Sequence record: OL770107
Direction: 5' to 3' (one strand)
From: Escherichia phage CLB_P2
DNA: 64,000 nt
Shown here piece by piece: positions 50,712-58,809 of this stretch. The position numbers and the translations under genes are program-made. Below the pieces are notes generated by a model. The model was not told where the DNA came from, did no database searches, and saw only the letters and a program-made list of their open reading frames with translations. Positions within the stretch are counted from its first letter, which is position 1. Every line of letters begins with the position of its first letter.

Positions 50712-52124
50712 ATGGCTTTTACTGTAAGTATAGCCGGCGCTGCGTCTATTAAAATAGGCGAAAGCGCCAACTACACTGCTACCGCAACAGGTGCAGCTGT
50801 AGAAGGAACCGTTACATATGTATGGACCATTGACGGTGCTTCTAATCCGGAGGCAACCAATGTTTTGAGATATACCGGTGCGGCTCCAGCTGGTAAGAAA
50901 GTTTTAAAAGTAGTAGCAACTTCTACTCCGGCCGAAGGCGAACCTGAGGTAGCTGAAAAAACTTTTGAAGTTACCGTAGCTAATAAGACCATGACTATTT
51001 CTTTGGCCTTAGACCCTACTTCCGTTTCTAAAGAAATTGGCCAGTCCCAAGTTGTTACTGCTAACGTGACGGGTGCTCCTGCTGGTGCTACAATTGCTTA
51101 TGTTTGGAAACGTAATACAACTGTAATTTCAGGACAAACTGGTAAAACTATTACTGTAACCGAAGCAGCAGAAGCAAATTACACGTTGAACTGTGAAGTT
51201 ACTGTTACCGCCCCTGAATATGACCCGGGTACCGCTACTAAAGGTGTTGCGGTAACTTTTGTTAAGAAAACTATATCAGGTGCTTCCGTTACTTTAACAC
51301 CAGCCTCAATTAGTACAGAGAAAGGCTCATCTGCACAGTTTAAAGCGGATGTAGTTGGCGCTCCTTCCGGCGTAAATGCAACTTATTCTTGGAAGAAAAA
51401 TGGTTCTATTATTCCAGGCGAAAGCAGTAATATTCTTGCCGTCGATACATCTACAATAGGTTCTTACTCTATTGAAGTTTCGGTACTCCTAAAAGGTACG
51501 GATTATAATGATTTAACCGTTACCAAAACAGGAAGTGTAACAATTACTAAAAAGACTATGGCAGGTGTTTCTGTTAATTTAACGCCTGCTTCTATTACTG
51601 TCTCTGAAGGAATCCCGGCTTCTTTTAAAACCACGGTAGTCGGTGCGCCTAGTGGTGCTACTTTTGCTTATTCTTGGAAGAAAGATGGTTCACCTGTTGT
51701 GGGTGCTACGGATACATTAGTAATTGACACAAGCGCTGAAGGTTCACAGGTTATTGAAGTTTCTGTTGTGGTTTCGGCTACCGACTATAATTCTGTGACC
51801 GTCACAAAATCCGGTAATGTAACAATTACGGCTAAAGTCGCTCCTGAACCAGAGGGCGAACTACCTTACGTTCATCCGCTACCAGTTCGTAATTCAGCTT
51901 ATATTTGGTGTGGTTGGTGGGTTATGGACGAAATTCAGAAAATGACCCTTGAAGGCAAAGACTGGAAAACTGACGAACCTGATAGTGAATATTATCTCCA
52001 TCGTTATACCCTTCAAAAAATGGTAGCCGATTATCCTGAGGTTGATGTACAGGAATCTCGTAATGGTAGAATTATTCACAGAACCGCTTTGGATGCTGGA
52101 ATTATTTACGATTACGTTTATTAA
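50712..52124 (+). CDS. hoc: Hoc capsid decoration protein with four Ig-like repeats
   Basis: 470 aa; four repeats of about 90 aa each with a Y-W-K pattern; C-terminal capsid-binding block IWCGWWVMDEIQKMT...YPEVDVQESRNG as in T4 Hoc. Confidence 0.8.
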   Translation: MAFTVSIAGAASIKIGESANYTATATGAAVEGTVTYVWTIDGASNPEATNVLRYTGAAPAGKKVLKVVATSTPAEGEPEVAEKTFEVTVANKTMTISLALDPTSVSKEIGQSQVVTANVTGAPAGATIAYVWKRNTTVISGQTGKTITVTEAAEANYTLNCEVTVTAPEYDPGTATKGVAVTFVKKTISGASVTLTPASISTEKGSSAQFKADVVGAPSGVNATYSWKKNGSIIPGESSNILAVDTSTIGSYSIEVSVLLKGTDYNDLTVTKTGSVTITKKTMAGVSVNLTPASITVSEGIPASFKTTVVGAPSGATFAYSWKKDGSPVVGATDTLVIDTSAEGSQVIEVSVVVSATDYNSVTVTKSGNVTITAKVAPEPEGELPYVHPLPVRNSAYIWCGWWVMDEIQKMTLEGKDWKTDEPDSEYYLHRYTLQKMVADYPEVDVQESRNGRIIHRTALDAGIIYDYVY

Positions 52125-52128
52125 TAAA

Positions 52129-52148
52129 GGGCCGCAAGGCCCTTATTT
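52129..52148 (+). terminator. terminator after hoc
   Basis: GGGCC-GCAA-GGCCC followed by TTATTT. Confidence 0.55.
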
Positions 52149-52209
52149 AGTTTATGATAATGTTTCGGGAGATTAAGTTATTGACGAATAATTTTTAATA
52201 GGTGGATAT

Positions 52210-52389
52210 ATGAAATTTAACAAAGATATAGGGTTGTTGGTTTTCTTTATAGTGCTGTTTTTGTTTTCGTTAATTTCATTAACTAGTGGGTTGTTTGCTT
52301 CTATATTGGCTCTTTTCACATGCATTAGTTCCTTTTTTGGGATAATAGCTACTATAGATAAAATTTTACATACCAAAAAGGGCCCGTAG
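52210..52389 (+). CDS. small hydrophobic protein (59 aa, two predicted TM segments)
   Basis: Below the ORF-track cutoff; MKFNKDIGLLVFFIVLFLFSLISLTSGLFASILALFTCISSFFGIIATIDKILHTKKGP; sits between two terminators. Confidence 0.3.
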   Translation: MKFNKDIGLLVFFIVLFLFSLISLTSGLFASILALFTCISSFFGIIATIDKILHTKKGP

Positions 52390-52405
52390 GCCCTTTATTA
52401 TTTTT
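52376..52405. terminator. bidirectional terminator
   Basis: GGGCC-CGTA-GGCCC flanked by AAAA and TTTATTATTTTT; overlaps stop codons of both convergent ORFs. Confidence 0.6.
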
Positions 52406-53264
52406 CAGGAGGGACGTAAACTAAGTCTTTCCTTTCTAAGATGTAGCCATTTCTCGACTCTTGTATCTCTACTTCAGGATACTTAGACAAAAGGTCGGCT
52501 ACTTTTTGTAACTCACATTTATACTTGTATGGGCTGTTGTTTATATCCAAAGTCCAATCTTCTCCCAATCTAACGGCTTCTCTTATTTCGTCCCATACCC
52601 ACCAACCTATCCACATATACGATTCATTTCTTCCACCGCCATATGGTAAATAAGCATTAAGGTCGTTATCATATATGAAAGGGCACTGCAATACATCATC
52701 CCTAGGTTTTATTTCAACTAAAAGTTCTTCAGAAGCAGGGATATATGCTCCTTCGCAGGTCGCTATAGATTTTAATGTATAATCTCCAAATTTATCAGGG
52801 TCGTCTATTAATATATCAATATCTTCGTCTTTAGATAATTCTACTCCATCTCTATACCATCTACAAATTCTTTCGGCATAAGTGGGTTCCACTCTACACG
52901 ACGGGCGAAGTGAAACTGTTTCTCCTATATTGGCATATATTAATTCCCTAGAGTTTATATCTAGGACTATTCTTCTTGGAAGGGTACCTATTTCAAGTTC
53001 TATTTCGTTACTCTTTGTTATTTCACCACTTTTCTTATTTGTTATGGTCGCATAAAATGTTCCTGCCGCCGGGAATCCTACTTCCCATAAATTTAATTCA
53101 AAAGGGTCTTCGGTAGGAAGTTGTGGAATATGGACATCGTTTTTATACCAATTAATTTCTACATCATCTAGAGTAGAACCGGGTGGTAATACAAACCCGG
53201 TATAAAAGGTTACTGTCCTGCCAACCAATTCATATCTAGGACCATTTATTTTAAGTACAATCAT
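52398..53264 (-). CDS. second Hoc-like Ig-domain protein with Hoc-type capsid-binding C-terminus
   Basis: 288 aa; Ig-like motifs INWYKNDV and CRWYRDGVEL; C-terminal block MWIGWWVWDEIREAV...YPEVEIQESRNG parallels the Hoc tail; AAGGAGG RBS. Confidence 0.6.
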   Translation of the reverse strand: MIVLKINGPRYELVGRTVTFYTGFVLPPGSTLDDVEINWYKNDVHIPQLPTEDPFELNLWEVGFPAAGTFYATITNKKSGEITKSNEIELEIGTLPRRIVLDINSRELIYANIGETVSLRPSCRVEPTYAERICRWYRDGVELSKDEDIDILIDDPDKFGDYTLKSIATCEGAYIPASEELLVEIKPRDDVLQCPFIYDNDLNAYLPYGGGRNESYMWIGWWVWDEIREAVRLGEDWTLDINNSPYKYKCELQKVADLLSKYPEVEIQESRNGYILERKDLVYVPPEK

Positions 53265-53273
53265 TTAACCTCC

Positions 53274-54779
53274 TTAAAACGTGCTCATATTGGTATGGTC
53301 TTCGACAGAAAATAAAACTTCAACAGGGATATCTGTAGTCGTATTAAGAGGGCCGCCTACAATAAACACAGATACAGTGTAGTATTTTCTAGTATCACGG
53401 TCAAATATTTCGTAACGGTTAAATTGTCTTGCACTAGAATAAGCCAAATCGTCGAATAATTCAGGAGATGATGACCACAACACATTACTCCAGTTGGCAC
53501 ATTCTATTCCGTTTTCATAGTTGGTAAATCTTTTAATATCAAGCCTATTAGTAAGACCTGCATTAGTAGCCCTTATATGGATGCCTACAGATGAGTACAT
53601 GCGAACATGAAGAACCATATTAAGGTCCCACAAACGTATTTCCTTCCACTCTGAAGTGTTCAGAGGCTTATCAAATCTTAAAGAGCCTTTCCAATATCTA
53701 GGTGGATAGAATGGGAAAAGTTTATCATATAAAGATTTTAATTGAGACTGGGTTAAAGAATCGACATCAAATACTGCATCTTTGCCTGGCGCACCTGCAG
53801 GACCTATAGGACCTTGAATACCTTGAGGACCTTGATCGCCTTTTTCACCTTTAGGTCCTGGATTACCTTGTGGACCCTGCGGCCCTTGAGCACCGGGCGC
53901 GCCATCTTCTCCTGGATATCCAGGTCTTCCTTCTTGTACAAACAAATGCCAATAATCAACCCATAGGTCTCCACGGCCTGGATAACTATCATTATTTGCT
54001 ATATTGTCCTGAATACAAATCCAAGAAGACCCTTCGCACTGGACTAAATCATTTACATAATAAGGTGTGCCAGGGTCCCAGTTTCCGGCCCAGATAAACC
54101 CATTACCATCTTGGCCTGGCGCGCCTTGTGGACCTTGAGGGCCGGTTGGGCCTGTTGGTCCTTGAGGACCTGGTGCACCGATATTAGCCAATAGCGCCCA
54201 AACTCCTTCGCTAGGAGGTATTGTTCCTGTATTAGAACTGATGCAAAAATAAGAAGCTCCCTGGTATCCAACTGCATCGTCTTTAGAGTATTGGGTAGAT
54301 TCATCCCAGGCTCCCTTCCACACCAAACCTGCCGGGCCTATAGGACCTTGTGGTCCTTGCGGTCCTACTTCTCCTTGGGCCCCTTGTAAACCCTGAGGGC
54401 CTTCTTTTCCTGGTGAACCCGGGTCTCCTTTAGGACCTTCTGGACCTGCTGGTCCTGGTTCGCCCTTTTCTCCTTTAGGACCCGGGTTACCTTGAATACC
54501 TTGCGGCCCTGGGTCTCCTTTAGGGCCTTGTGGACCTTCAGTACCAGGTGTTAGCATCTCATTAGTTATACCTAAATGGGCCAACGCGCCTTCCCTAGAA
54601 GCTTGTTTTATAAATTCAAGTCCATAACTTTGAGAAGAATCCAACATAGTAGGGTCTAAGGTGCTTTCACTAGTGAGTATGTCTGCAAATTCCAATGATT
54701 TATCCTGCGGAACTTCTACTAATGATACGCCTCTAAAGTGACCTCTACCGTCATGCCCGTATAATGGATTGTCTGACAT
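53274..54779 (-). CDS. collagen-like triple-helix repeat protein with Trp/Tyr-rich interspersed modules
   Basis: 501 aa; three Gly-X-Y blocks (about 24, 9 and 17 triplets) separated by two 50-aa modules (W.GAWD...Y..D.V.Y.G..Y.C...P....W); 180-aa C-terminal globular region. Confidence 0.8.
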
Positions 54780-54789
54780 AAAATCTCCT

Positions 54790-54819
54790 GTTTACAAGTT
54801 AAAATTCTCATGTTACTAT
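54790..54819 (+). promoter_or_regulatory. early promoter for the small HTH-like ORF
   Basis: GTTTAC, 18 nt, TACTAT in the 70-nt divergent spacer. Confidence 0.45.
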
Positions 54820-54848
54820 TGAATAGTTCAAATCACAAGAGAACTGTT

Positions 54849-55061
54849 ATGGATAAGATTAAAGTACATTTTTTACATGAATCGGGTATGAATTTTATTG
54901 ATATTGCTAAAAAGATTGGCGGAACTGCCAGAGATATGGCTAAAGCTTGGGCCGAAGTTGAGAATGCTAAGGCCAAGTTTAAAGCAAGAGAGAAAGTCGT
55001 ATATCGTAAAAGATTAAACAACAAAAAAGTCAGCGCAAAGCGCGTTTTTGGTCTAAAGTAA
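54849..55061 (+). CDS. small HTH-like basic protein
   Basis: About 70 aa from ATG at 54849; helix-turn-helix-like FIDIAKKIGGTARDMAKAW; lysine/arginine-rich C-terminus. Confidence 0.4.
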   Translation: MDKIKVHFLHESGMNFIDIAKKIGGTARDMAKAWAEVENAKAKFKAREKVVYRKRLNNKKVSAKRVFGLK

Positions 55062-55175
55062 TATGCTTTAAATTTAGGTGTGTTATAATGGGTCTAGGTC
55101 CTTCCGTTAAACCATTTGGCTTGGTGACAGAAGATTACTAGCTCTTCTATTTAATTATATTTATTATGGTGATTT

Positions 55176-56183
55176 ATGTTCAAGAAATATAGCAGTCTGG
55201 AAAACCACTACAACAGTAAGTTTATCGAAAAACTCCGTACCAATGGTTTGACTGGTGGTGAATGGGTAGCACGTGAGAAGATTCACGGAACCAACTTTAG
55301 TTTAATCATAGAACGTGACGCAGTCACATGCGCCAAGCGCACTGGCCCAATTCTCCCTGCCGAAGATTTCTATGGCTATGAAATTGTACTTAAGAACTAT
55401 GCTGATTCTATTAAATCTGTTCAACATCTAATCGAATCCATTAATTATCAGTCATATCAAATTTATGGCGAGTTCGCTGGTACAGGTATCCAGAAGAATG
55501 TGGATTATGGCGATAAAGACTTTTATGTATTTGATATCCGTGTTACTAAAGAAGATGGTACCGAATCCGTTTTAACTGATACCCTTATGGAAGCTTTCTG
55601 TATTATTCATAAGTTTAAGGTTGCTCCGTGCTTAGCCACAGGTAGCTTTGAAGACCTTATTAAACTGCCGAATGATTTTGATTCTGTTATCCCAGATTAC
55701 AATTTTGCAGTGGATAACGCAGGTTTAACCATTGCTAACTCAACCGATTTTATTCCTAAGGTCGAAGGTAAAGTATTTACGGCTGAAGGCTTTGTACTGA
55801 AACCTGATGTTCCTATCTGGCTGCCTAATGGAAATCGTGTAGCAATTAAATGCAAGAACTCTAAATTCAGCGAGAAGAAAAAGTCTGATAAGCCTATTAA
55901 GGCCGCAGTAATATTGTCCCAAGACGATATGGACTTGATGTGGCAATTCACCGATTATGTGACTGTTAACCGTATTAACAACGTTATCAGTAAGATTGGT
56001 GAAGTATCACCTAAAGATTTTGGAAAGGTAATGGGACTGACGGTCCAAGATATTTTGGAAGAGGCAGCCCGCGAAGAATTAGAATTAACCGATGCAGAAA
56101 ACCCTGTTGAAGTTAAAAAGCAGCTTATCGAGTGCGTTAAAGATACGCTACGAGCTGTGTGGATTGAATTAGTATCCAAATAA
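55176..56183 (+). CDS. rnlB: RNA ligase 2
   Basis: 335-aa ORF; adenylation lysine motif [10 protein letters not shown]; near-identical to T4 Rnl2 over the N-terminal 90 aa and C-terminal region. Confidence 0.9.
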
Positions 56184-56187
56184 ACAA

Positions 56188-56218
56188 TAAAGGGACCTTA
56201 CGGTCCCTTTTATTTTTC
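56188..56218. terminator. bidirectional terminator between rnlB and the head gene operon
   Basis: AGGGACC-TTAC-GGTCCCT flanked by A- and T-runs. Confidence 0.6.
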
Positions 56219-57490
56219 TAGTGGTGGAAGTTTAACACCGAGATAAGAACTCAACTGACTTTGATTAGCCATTTTGTCCATATCCGAACCATCAATAATG
56301 CGAGCTTCTTTATCGTCCTTAGCGACGGTATAAGGGTTTGCAGTCAATGCATAACGAGCAAGCAATGCTACTGTAGGTTGTAAGCTTTCCGGGTCAACAA
56401 TAACCTTAAATTCACCTACTGAAGTATCACCTTCTTCATCAACCACATCCAAACCTTCCGTATAAGGCGCATAATATAAAGATGCGACCGTCTGTCCTTC
56501 ACCCATCTGAGCATTTACACCAACAATAACATAATCACATGGACTATTCATATCGGCATAAAGAGGTAGACCATTCTTTAATACACCATAAGCCAATTCA
56601 TCTTGGTCTTCCTTTTTCTCAACCCAACCGGAAGCGGCGAGAATAGCAGCACAACGAGAACTAGCTACTGCATAAGTCCCAGCGAAAGAAGTTTGACGTT
56701 GGACGGCAGAGTTCATCTCACACATGTAATAATATAATGTACGAGCACGGTCCTGGGCATTATCATAACGTGGGTTAGTAAGGTCCAATACGCCCTTTTC
56801 AGAAACACCTTGGACTTTAAAACGAGAACTCACCGTAATTAATGACTGTAATACGTCCTTATTAATTTCTTCTGCCATTTGAATGCCTAGCAGATTTTCA
56901 ATGAAATTAGGAGCATTAAATCCGTTTGATTCTAGGTCTTGGGCCAATTCGACTGTCAACGAAGTTTTCAGTTTACGTGATTTAACTTCAGATTGCCATT
57001 TGTCAATACGGAAGCCTGCTTCAGCAATTTCAGGATGGCCTTGTTCGAATTTAGAAGTAATAGCAGCATCTGATACCATACGAATATGTCCGGCCGCCAC
57101 TGCTTCAGAAATAACTTCACCGAGGTCGGTTTCCGTGGTTCCGGCGAAAGGAGATGCTTCTAGAACTTTAAACACTACACTTTCAAACTGGAACATATCG
57201 CCGGCTGCATAAGCTGTAGACGAATCGGTAAATTCAGGAATATTTTCACGTTCCGACATACCAATCTGACCTGCAAATGTGGCGCCACCAAGATAAGTCA
57301 TTTTGTCGTCAGGATTAAGTACACGAACCCCGTACAGAGCGGCCACAGGTTGGCTTGTTTTTTGTTCAGCAACTAGGGCTTTAAAGATTCGTTTATTAGT
57401 TGCTTGGGTGTATGAAAGAAGAGCAGGACGGCCAACCGAGTTGGCAGCCGTCAATGTGGATTCTTTAATTAGGTCTATAATCTTAGACAT
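56210..57490 (-). CDS. gp24-like head vertex protein, diverged paralog
   Basis: 426 aa; about half of positions shared with the upstream gp24, incl. RKLKTSLTVELAQDLESNGF, INKDVLQSLITVS, YAPYTEGLD and LTANPYTVAKDDKEARIID. Confidence 0.8.
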   Translation of the reverse strand: MSKIIDLIKESTLTAANSVGRPALLSYTQATNKRIFKALVAEQKTSQPVAALYGVRVLNPDDKMTYLGGATFAGQIGMSERENIPEFTDSSTAYAAGDMFQFESVVFKVLEASPFAGTTETDLGEVISEAVAAGHIRMVSDAAITSKFEQGHPEIAEAGFRIDKWQSEVKSRKLKTSLTVELAQDLESNGFNAPNFIENLLGIQMAEEINKDVLQSLITVSSRFKVQGVSEKGVLDLTNPRYDNAQDRARTLYYYMCEMNSAVQRQTSFAGTYAVASSRCAAILAASGWVEKKEDQDELAYGVLKNGLPLYADMNSPCDYVIVGVNAQMGEGQTVASLYYAPYTEGLDVVDEEGDTSVGEFKVIVDPESLQPTVALLARYALTANPYTVAKDDKEARIIDGSDMDKMANQSQLSSYLGVKLPPLEK

Positions 57491-58773
57491 TAATCAGCCT
57501 CGTAAATAATTGCTGGAAGTTTAACACCAAGCAGATAGGACATATTACTCTGACCGGCCATTAAATCCATATTGGTTGCATCGATAACACGAGCTTCTTT
57601 ATCGTCTTTAGCTACGGTGTACGGGTTAGCGGACAGTGCATAACGAACCATCAGAGAAATAGAAGGCTGTAATGAATCCGGGTCGACAATAACCTTATAA
57701 GCACCAACGTGTTCTTGGTCGTCTAAATCCAGGCCTTCTGTATATGGGGCGTAGAAAATAGAACCGACAACTTCATTACCACCATAGTTCTCTTTAACAC
57801 CTACGATAACATAATCCAATGGGCTGTTAACGTCGCAGAACAGAGGTAATCCATTCAACAAATAACCATAGGCCGTTTCTGGGAGCCAATTATTATCTTC
57901 AGGTCTATGTTTTAACCAGCCAGAACCTGCAAGCATTGCAGCCACACGACTTGAAGCCACAACAAACGTACCTGAATAAGAAGTAGTTTTCTGGATTTCA
58001 GAATTCATCTCACAAACAATTTCATAAAGTTTACGTGCAGATTCTGGAGCACTATCATAAGTCAAATCGATGATGCCATTATCAGATACACCCGTAACTT
58101 TATAGCGTTTGGATACGGTTATTAGAGATTGCAGAACATCTTTATTAATTTCATCTGCCATTACCGTAGCCAGGAGGTCTTCTAAGAATGCAGGGGCGTC
58201 GAAGCCATTTGATTCCATATCCTGTGCTAATTCTACGGTCAAAGCAGTCTTCAATTTACGGGTCTTAACAGGGGCATTCCATTTATTAACCTGGAATACA
58301 GCATCAGAGATTTCTACATCACTCTCTTCAAATTTAGTGGTATGGGCTGCATCAGGAACCAAACGACACGTTAATGACACCAAACCTTCTTGAAGAGCAT
58401 CGGCCAATTCTGTAGCGCTAGTGGATGCGAGTGGGCTTGCTTGAAGAGCCTTATAAACCACATTCTGATACTTAAAGTAGTCACCCTTGGCAATCGCCTG
58501 GGCTTTATCTGTGAGTTCCGGGATAGTTTCACGGTCTTTAGAACCAACTTCACCACCATAAACTGCACCGGTTTGGAAACTGAATTCATTATCAGGGGTA
58601 AGATATTTGACACCATACAACGCAGCGATAGGTTGGTTTGTACGTTGTTCAGCGATGATATCGCGATAAATTAGTTTAGTGGTAGCACGGGTCAAAGCAA
58701 CAAGATTAGGGCGACCCAATGAGTTGCTGGTAGTAGTTGTTGACTCGCGCAGTAATTCGTTAATCTTTGCCAT
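57490..58773 (-). CDS. 24: head vertex protein gp24
   Basis: 427-aa ORF (T4 gp24 427 aa); N-terminus MAKINELLRESTTTTSNSLGRPNLVALTRATTKLIY nearly identical to T4 gp24. Confidence 0.9.
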   Translation of the reverse strand: MAKINELLRESTTTTSNSLGRPNLVALTRATTKLIYRDIIAEQRTNQPIAALYGVKYLTPDNEFSFQTGAVYGGEVGSKDRETIPELTDKAQAIAKGDYFKYQNVVYKALQASPLASTSATELADALQEGLVSLTCRLVPDAAHTTKFEESDVEISDAVFQVNKWNAPVKTRKLKTALTVELAQDMESNGFDAPAFLEDLLATVMADEINKDVLQSLITVSKRYKVTGVSDNGIIDLTYDSAPESARKLYEIVCEMNSEIQKTTSYSGTFVVASSRVAAMLAGSGWLKHRPEDNNWLPETAYGYLLNGLPLFCDVNSPLDYVIVGVKENYGGNEVVGSIFYAPYTEGLDLDDQEHVGAYKVIVDPDSLQPSISLMVRYALSANPYTVAKDDKEARVIDATNMDLMAGQSNMSYLLGVKLPAIIYEAD

Positions 58774-58801: not shown

Positions 58802-58809
58802 TATTTATA
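58802..58809 (-). promoter_or_regulatory. late promoter core TATAAATA for gene 24
   Basis: Minus-strand TTTTATAAATAAAC about 30 nt upstream of gp24 start. Confidence 0.5.

Follow-up and report, generated by a model that had tools for sequence, protein, structure and literature searches.

Within a window of 64,000 nucleotides (nt) from Escherichia phage CLB_P2 (sequence record OL770107), which is the whole stretch of DNA analysed here, a small gene on the + strand lies between a divergently transcribed collagen-like gene and rnlB, the gene for RNA ligase 2. Segment 54600-55300 is 100% identical to Dhakavirus CLBP2, 97.7% identical to Escherichia phages dhaeg and dhabil and 86-88% identical to JS98, JS10 and other Dhakavirus, and on this identity the window is placed in Dhakavirus, in the JS98 group of T4-like phages. 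The protein matches Pfam PF11242 (DUF2774; E=2e-29, 102 bits against a cut-off of 29.2) over residues 1-61, aligned with positions 1-61 of the 63 in the profile, and PHROG 1566 (E=1.8e-32). A family profile built from diverse members also recovers T4 gp24.3 (E=8.6e-15), and all 80 of its 80 matches belong to PF11242, so that the identity stood up to the reciprocal profile comparison. The orthologue is annotated as 'gp24.3' in JS10 and as 'RB69 gp24.3-like' in JS98, and we assign the gene, on sequence similarity, as the Dhakavirus orthologue of T4 gene 24.3. This family is already catalogued as a conserved hypothetical of T4-type phages. Taken as a whole, the locus is probably best explained as a 24.3 orthologue that encodes a small basic prereplicative protein with no dedication to its neighbours, and beside which a cassette was inserted.

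The initial annotation described an open reading frame (ORF) of about 70 amino acids (aa) spanning 54790-55061. We found an ORF of exactly 70 aa with the product MDKIKVHFLHESGMNFIDIAKKIGGTARDMAKAWAEVENAKAKFKAREKVVYRKRLNNKKVSAKRVFGLK, whose stop codon ends at 55061 as stated, while its ATG is located at 54849 and position 54790 is the first base of the promoter. A longer ORF of 83 aa, obtained mechanically from an ATG at 54810, was rejected. This ATG falls between the -35 and -10 elements and its JS98 counterpart stops after three codons, and the 70-aa form is therefore taken as the real product. The weak Shine-Dalgarno-like sequence upstream of the ATG reads GAGAGAA in JS98, and its purine-rich GAGAA core is common to four Dhakavirus sequences. 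Comparison of the window, dhaeg, JS10 and JS98 over codons 1-58 gave a ratio of nonsynonymous to synonymous substitution (dN/dS) of 0.04-0.07 with dS up to about 2, a pattern that points to strong purifying selection. In T4, 24.3 belongs to the transcript class 'early' and the protein class 'middle' (Wolfram-Schauerte et al. 2022; PMC9697503 Table S2). Undetected products are marked 'NA' in that table and 24.3 has a class, which shows that mass spectrometry detected the T4 protein (PMC9697503). By the substitution pattern and the T4 data, 24.3 is judged to be a real protein-coding gene.

The early-type promoter that had been proposed for the ORF (GTTTAC-18-TACTAT) holds on two counts, enrichment and fit to the consensus. 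The window contains 13 occurrences of GTTTAC-N16-18-TAnnnT where 3.0 +/- 1.65 are expected; no shuffle out of 100 gave as many, and the match is therefore more than chance. Twelve of these 13 sites are on the + strand and several have the TGnTACTAT form of the -10 element. When written as TTTACA-17-TACTAT (54791-54819), the promoter is an exact fit to TTTACW-N17-TAYWAT, the early-promoter consensus of T4-type promoter-early stem-loop (PeSL) elements (PMC4122927). The -35 element and its flanks are invariant in dhaeg, JS10 and JS98. Prereplicative expression of the window gene is predicted from the enriched early consensus together with the early transcript and middle-class protein of the T4 orthologue (PMC9697503).

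Table 1. Position of gene 24.3, its parts and its neighbours in the window
Feature	Position	Strand	Remarks
hoc	50712-52124	+	preceded by inh
hoc terminator stem-loop AAGGGCCGCAAGGCCCTT	52127..52144	+	same stem-loop in JS98
Inserted cassette	52145..54779	-	absent from JS98; includes a small + ORF, a terminator and two genes
Terminator in cassette	52377-52396		
Second Hoc-like gene	52398-53264	-	part of cassette
Collagen-like gene with CBM_5_12 modules	53274-54779	-	part of cassette
Early-type promoter	54790..54819	+	-35 GTTTAC 54790-54795, 18-nt spacer, TG, -10 TACTAT 54814-54819
Shine-Dalgarno-like AAGAGAA	54837..54843	+	weak; 5 nt upstream of ATG; read from sequence
24.3 orthologue (Pfam DUF2774)	54849..55061	+	70 aa, 8.0 kDa, isoelectric point (pI) 10.4
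Predicted three-helix helix-turn-helix (HTH) domain	54849..54986	+	residues 1-46: H1 2-11, H2 16-23, turn, H3 27-46
Conserved basic arm REKVVYRKRLNN	54987..55022	+	residues 47-58; predicted non-helical, pLDDT ~62
C-terminal tail, frame-tolerant	55023..55058	+	last 12 aa; KKVSAKRVFGLK or KVRRKARSSSN, both basic
Hairpin AGCGCAAAGCGCGTT, then T-run	55032..55046	+	within 3' end of coding sequence; DNA conserved, frame varies among phages
24.3-rnlB intergenic region	55062..55175	+	almost invariant across Dhakavirus
Middle-promoter-like site	55063..55089	+	MotA-box ATGCTTTA 55063-55070, 13 nt, TATAAT 55084-55089; upstream of rnlB
rnlB (RNA ligase 2)	55176..56183	+	Pfam RNA_ligase and T4_Rnl2_C; PHROG 548, E=2e-127
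Bidirectional terminator hairpin	56189..56210	both	between rnlB (+) and gp24b (-)
gp24 paralogues (capsid vertex), tandem	56210-57490 and 57490-58773	-	426 and 427 aa; 24a/24b in JS98 and JS10

The 24.3 family was found by tblastn in 1083 of 50,697 phage records (1086 matching places), nearly always as one copy per genome, and almost all of these records are T4-like phages of Escherichia, Klebsiella, Shigella, Enterobacter, Yersinia, Salmonella, Serratia and Citrobacter. When 1.84 billion representative proteins were scanned exhaustively with HMMER, only 50 clusters were returned, mostly of 55-130 aa, and on this distribution DUF2774 is a narrow, phage-specific family. The gene order inh-hoc-24.3-(variable)-rnlB was observed in T4 (Tequatrovirus), JS98 (Dhakavirus), CC31 (Karamvirus) and Mineola (Jiaodavirus), and in phiR1-RT (Tegunavirus) 24.3 is at the same position with hoc fragmented. 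The window conforms to the hoc-24.3-rnlB position on the prereplicative strand, save for the interposed inverted cassette. With this order, 24.3 would be the first gene of an early transcription unit that continues through a variable slot into rnlB. A partner gene shared between genera was sought in the slot, where T4 has 24.2, Mineola an ORF, CC31 a C-terminal extension and JS10 a 122-aa ORF, and the slot proteins were mutually unrelated in the three pairs compared.

The closest well-known relative is T4 gp24.3 (UniProt P39492), which belongs to the same hidden Markov model family (PF11242; PHROG 1566) and is encoded at the same place between hoc and rnlB. Both proteins contain the invariant ESG..F..IA core and the EKVVYRKR arm. 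The T4 protein differs in its length of 56 aa, as it is without 11 helix-3 residues of the window protein, and T4 24.3 overlaps gene 24.2, which has no counterpart in the window. Furthermore, hoc is directly upstream on the same strand in T4, whereas the inverted cassette is interposed in the window. Other members of the family depart further in size. For example, Klebsiella phage vB_Kpn_AM_K4 (a 288-kb phage contig) encodes a 167-aa variant with two tandem DUF2774 domains, and '24.3' of CC31 is 193 aa long with an unrelated C-terminal extension. Several DUF2774 members are labelled 'DNA primase-helicase subunit', a label that seems to be an error carried over from record to record.

The window and JS98 are homologous up to a point just past the hoc stem-loop (52144) and again from about 54780, and the divergent layout is therefore explained by insertion of the cassette at a PeSL-type junction. 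On this comparison the layout is a by-product of a late-strand cassette of about 2.6 kb that entered with the hoc terminator on one side and the early promoter of 24.3 on the other. In JS98 about 40 nt separate the hoc stem-loop from the 24.3 promoter behind it, and the two form a PeSL-type composite (GGGCCGCAAGGCCC...TTTACA-17-TAAGAT), and in the window the stem-loop 52127-52144 and TTTACA-17-TACTAT flank the insert. The insertion or deletion separates close relatives at this junction, as the window, dhaeg and JS10 carry the cassette and JS98 is without it. PeSL elements are known as module-shuffling sites in T4-type genomes (Arbiol et al. 2010, PMC2839356; Comeau et al. 2014, PMC4122927). 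The JS98 hoc/24.3 junction resembles them in that it combines a stem-loop with an early promoter matching TTTACW-N17-TAYWAT, and the indel falls exactly there. Neither JS98 nor hoc is mentioned in the PeSL study (PMC4122927), and the JS98 group lies outside that published analysis. We infer that recombination actually used the stem-loop and promoter motifs at the junction. The locus offers a clean example of a late-strand collagen-like and Hoc-like cassette inserted at a PeSL-type terminator-promoter junction.

The sequence immediately upstream of the collagen-like start (54780-54797, minus strand) is TTGTAAACAGGAGATTTTATG in the window and ATGTAAACAAGGAGAAAATATG in Erwinia phage Cronus, where no 24.3 faces the gene. 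The reverse complement of TGTAAACA upstream of this start is GTTTACA, the -35 element of the 24.3 promoter, and judging from the sequence this complement may be a microhomology or a PeSL remnant at the cassette junction.

The protein itself was modelled with AlphaFold2 from 43 family members, and the same 43-sequence alignment was used for residue conservation. Residues 1-50 were predicted at pLDDT 86-92, with helices at 2-11, 16-23 and 27-46 and then a non-helical tail. The HTH-like segment that had been noticed in the sequence, FIDIAKKIGGTARDMAKAW (residues 16-34), corresponds to helix 2, the turn and helix 3 of the model. The predicted HTH can be superimposed on solved sigma70 region 4 and LuxR-type members, and as a predicted fold it is of the sigma-region-4, LuxR or Hin type. 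The Lys/Arg-rich tail was also confirmed, as residues 47-70 contain 10 K+R against 1 D+E (pI 11.6). The basic arm within it is the most conserved stretch of the family, where V51, Y52 and R53 are each conserved in at least 90% of the sequences and K54 and R55 are invariant. For the more than 1000 phage genomes that carry DUF2774, including T4, the predicted sigma4/LuxR-like HTH with its invariant VYRKR arm provides a structural lead.

Foldseek against viral models returned the protein's own family first, followed by weak matches to psq, Hin, IS150 and sigma4 HTH proteins. A sequence search of the Protein Data Bank (PDB) with the single protein gave no match, as did an NCBIfam search, and a PDB search with the family profile gave marginal matches only, of which the best on HTH proteins had E=0.013-0.45. 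Sub-threshold Pfam and PDB matches fell on HTH_38, HTH_7, GerE, Sigma70_r4_2, RpoE, an IS21-type transposase and VirB. The GerE and Hin alignments from hhalign are in the expected helix1-helix2 register, though non-significant. A PADLOC match to Cas1 (E=0.0023, on a helical stretch) was taken as chance, with nothing else in its support. The term 'HTH-like' describes the predicted fold and does not place the protein in a named HTH family.

Two groups of known HTH domains are relevant for comparison. The first comprises sigma-70 region 4 and the LuxR-GerE-NarL domains (1rp3 FliA, 2h27 SigE region 4 and 1fse GerE), to which no significant profile relation was found. These domains have four helices, whereas 24.3 has three and is a free-standing 70-aa protein that carries an extra invariant basic arm and a recognition helix without conserved DNA contacts. 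The second group includes the HTHs of Hin, resolvases, psq proteins and IS transposases, where the likeness consists of a small tri-helical HTH with a short basic peptide that could fit a groove. Weak matches in this group were HTH_7, HTH_38, the IS5376 transposase, Tn3 resolvase and an Aeromonas phage Aeh1 'HTH psq-type' protein. All Hin-type matches are below significance; the arm of Hin is N-terminal to its HTH whereas that of 24.3 is C-terminal, and 24.3 is without a catalytic domain.

As a best guess, we take 24.3 for a small prereplicative protein that binds nucleic acid. Early in infection the protein may, as we tentatively propose from the model, bind nucleic acid, most likely DNA. The HTH would dock on the duplex and the invariant basic arm would grip the backbone or an adjacent groove. 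The target could be of host or phage origin; it would be common to enterobacterial T4-like phages and would not be the cassette.

Several observations weigh against this proposal. The link to HTH proteins rests on predicted structure, and no Pfam HTH family was reached at threshold, with GerE, Sigma70_r4_2, HTH_7 and HTH_38 each found sub-threshold in 4-6 of the 43 members. Comparison by hhalign with manually entered sequences of sigma70 region 4, GerE and Hin gave a probability of about 1%. The recognition helix (helix 3) is without conserved basic or polar DNA-contact residues, as positions 28, 32 and 33 are variable, and position 29 is always D or E across the family. In CC31 this helix reads KPEEAALYY and is without a basic residue beyond the first position. 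Judged from its sequence, such a recognition helix is atypical of a sequence-specific DNA binder. The best conserved part is the VYRKR arm, which is unstructured and could equally bind protein or RNA. In addition, no operator-like repeats were observed around the 24.3 gene, and a literature search on DUF2774, gp24.3 and T4 24.3/24.2/rnlB found no paper assigning a function.

If the arm binds RNA, 24.3 could be an RNA-binding or non-specific nucleic-acid accessory that assists or targets the co-transcribed RNA ligase 2 (RnlB). Such a role agrees with the conservation of the transcription unit with rnlB across several genera, with the strongly basic tail, and with the expression class that T4 24.3, 24.2 and rnlB have in common (PMC9697503 Table S2). 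We nevertheless regard it as unlikely. RnlB was found in 1376 records at tblastn sensitivity, including those of Acinetobacter, Vibrio and Aeromonas phages that are outside the hosts listed for 24.3, and phiR1-RT retains 24.3 beside a split rnlB. Furthermore, the unrelated genes that different genera carry between 24.3 and rnlB are what would be expected of a plastic slot rather than of a functional operon.

It is also possible that the HTH-like fold does not read DNA and that 24.3 is a sigma-region-4 mimic or another protein-interaction module, a role we consider quite unlikely. Here the fold and VYRKR would act together in the early-to-middle switch by binding the beta-flap, AsiA, MotA, sigma70 or some other protein of the host. 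With its 46 residues, a three-helix HTH fits sigma4, LuxR, Hin and terminase about equally, so that the fold is unspecific, and no significant sequence similarity to sigma factors was found. The narrower form of this idea, in which 24.3 is a free-standing sigma-region-4 mimic that tunes the early-to-middle switch of enterobacterial T4-like phages with its VYRKR arm on the host transcription machinery, is improbable to us. If true, it would be a new small phage-encoded RNA polymerase modulator hidden in one of the best-studied genomes.

The initial annotation had favoured a different role, in which the small HTH protein serves the collagen/Hoc-like module as its dedicated regulator and acts through the divergent spacer between them. 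The facing layout of the two genes is as described, although the spacer measures 69 nt and not 70, with the collagen-like start codon at 54779 (minus strand). The genes are divergent and adjacent in the window, in dhaeg, in JS10 and in the Salmonella phage CGG4-1 (Gelderlandvirus), and the collagen-like gene lacks its own late promoter, both of which would suit a regulator. The distribution of the two genes speaks strongly against it. The 24.3 gene occurs in 1083 records and the collagen-like C-terminal domain in 12, and both JS98 and T4 carry 24.3 directly after hoc on the same strand and without the cassette. The JS98 gene has its -35 region and ribosome-binding site as in the window, in a genome with no collagen-like or second Hoc-like gene. 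In Cronus the collagen-like and Hoc-like pair follows directly on the gp24 pair, and a distance of five genes, about 3.4 kb, separates it from the DUF2774 gene. The conserved part of the spacer is the 24.3 promoter, which pre-exists in JS98, and no convincing inverted repeat of an operator-like kind was found in 54780-54848. Regulation of late virion genes by an early protein would moreover be unusual for T4-type late transcription, which depends on gp55, gp33 and the clamp. The dedicated regulator fails on these grounds and is very improbable; 24.3 is not a private regulator of the cassette. Least tenable is a spurious ORF, with a frame open by chance and conservation only of the DNA of promoter and leader, to which the shortness of the ORF and the frameshift tolerated in its last 12 codons would lend support, but which is refuted by the substitution pattern, with synonymous change near saturation over codons 1-58 at the low dN/dS given above, and is opposed by a family that spans many genera at 40-55% protein identity and by the mass-spectrometric detection of the T4 orthologue (PMC9697503), leaving it practically no credence.

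The 3' end of the 24.3 coding sequence shows a different kind of constraint. The last 12 codons are read in another frame in JS98 and JS10, owing to 2-nt and 1-nt indels, and the DNA hairpin GCGCAAAGCGC beneath these codons is kept in both phages despite the changed frame. Since the frame of the tail varies over a conserved hairpin, the functional protein probably ends at about residue 58-60, which coincides with the end of the Pfam DUF2774 domain. In this part of the gene the constrained feature seems, from the sequences compared, to be a DNA or RNA element rather than the peptide. The hairpin at 55032..55046 is the stem-loop half of a promoter-middle stem-loop (PmSL)-like element (for the PmSL concept see PMC4122927), and the 24.3/rnlB junction has the likeness of a PmSL cassette in that the stem-loop is joined to a Mot-box promoter. 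The middle-promoter-like site is identical in four phages, and TGCTT is the definition of the Mot box (PMC4122927).

The intergenic region that contains this site matches JS98 at 99.1% identity, where the 24.3 coding sequence reaches 80.5%, and the region stays at 97.4% or more in about 50 Dhakavirus records. An 80-nt leader lies within it, and JS10 keeps this leader with a different ORF behind. We looked for a structured RNA in the region and obtained no Rfam match and a fold no better than that of shuffled sequences (z = +0.55). The high identity to JS98 runs about 150 nt into rnlB, to about 55340, and part of the intergenic conservation may therefore be a recombination patch rather than the outcome of functional constraint. 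A candidate micro-ORF of 17 codons, MGLGPSVKPFGLVTEDY (55088-55141, + strand), was noticed in the region, with AGGTG 6 nt 5' of an ATG that overlaps the -10 element TATAAT.

The claim that the collagen-like gene has no recognisable late promoter was borne out, as no exact TATAAATA occurs on the minus strand between 50004 and 58802. Only variants of TATAAATA with one mismatch were found for the gene, which has a strong AGGAG ribosome-binding site. The nearest variant, TATCAATA (54896-54903, minus strand), was rejected as a late promoter as it is not conserved in JS10. A sigma70-like match at 55183-55154 (minus strand) was likewise set aside; it lies in an AT-rich region where 16 such matches were found against 12.8 expected, which is no enrichment. 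The cassette was found without a late promoter of its own in the window phage, CGG4-1 and Cronus, that is, in three genera, and this absence suggests expression by read-through. In Cronus the collagen-like gene begins 20 nt past the gp24 terminator. The nearest minus-strand late promoter upstream of the cassette in the window is the TATAAATA at 58802-58809, which lies before gp24a and precedes only this upstream gp24 copy. Late transcripts from this gene 24 promoter would read through past the hairpin 56189-56210 into the cassette, and they would run antisense across rnlB and 24.3. From the arrangement of these signals, minus-strand late read-through is the simplest and most likely expression route for the cassette. 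Against it stands that we only infer this route.

In Dhakavirus, CGG4-1 and Cronus alike, the second Hoc-like gene and the collagen-like gene occur together as a cassette of two genes. In the collagen-like protein the Gly-X-Y blocks are broken by two CBM_5_12 carbohydrate-binding modules and are accompanied by a distinct C-terminal domain, the one found in the 12 phage records. The window contains two Hoc-like genes in opposite orientation, hoc on the + strand and the cassette gene on the minus strand. Their products are alike at the C-terminus (...W(C/I)GWWV.DEI...DW......Y....LQK....YPEV(D/E)(V/I)QESRNG), and this likeness suggests that the two share a binding site on the capsid. Between the hoc terminator and the second Hoc-like gene we also observed a hydrophobic 59-aa ORF, MKFNKDIGLLVFFIVLFLFSLISLTSGLFASILALFTCISSFFGIIATIDKILHTKKGP (52210-52389, + strand), with an AGGTGG ribosome-binding site. 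It is membrane-like, with apparently two transmembrane segments; it is unannotated in dhaeg, and the gap in JS10 is too short for the ORF.

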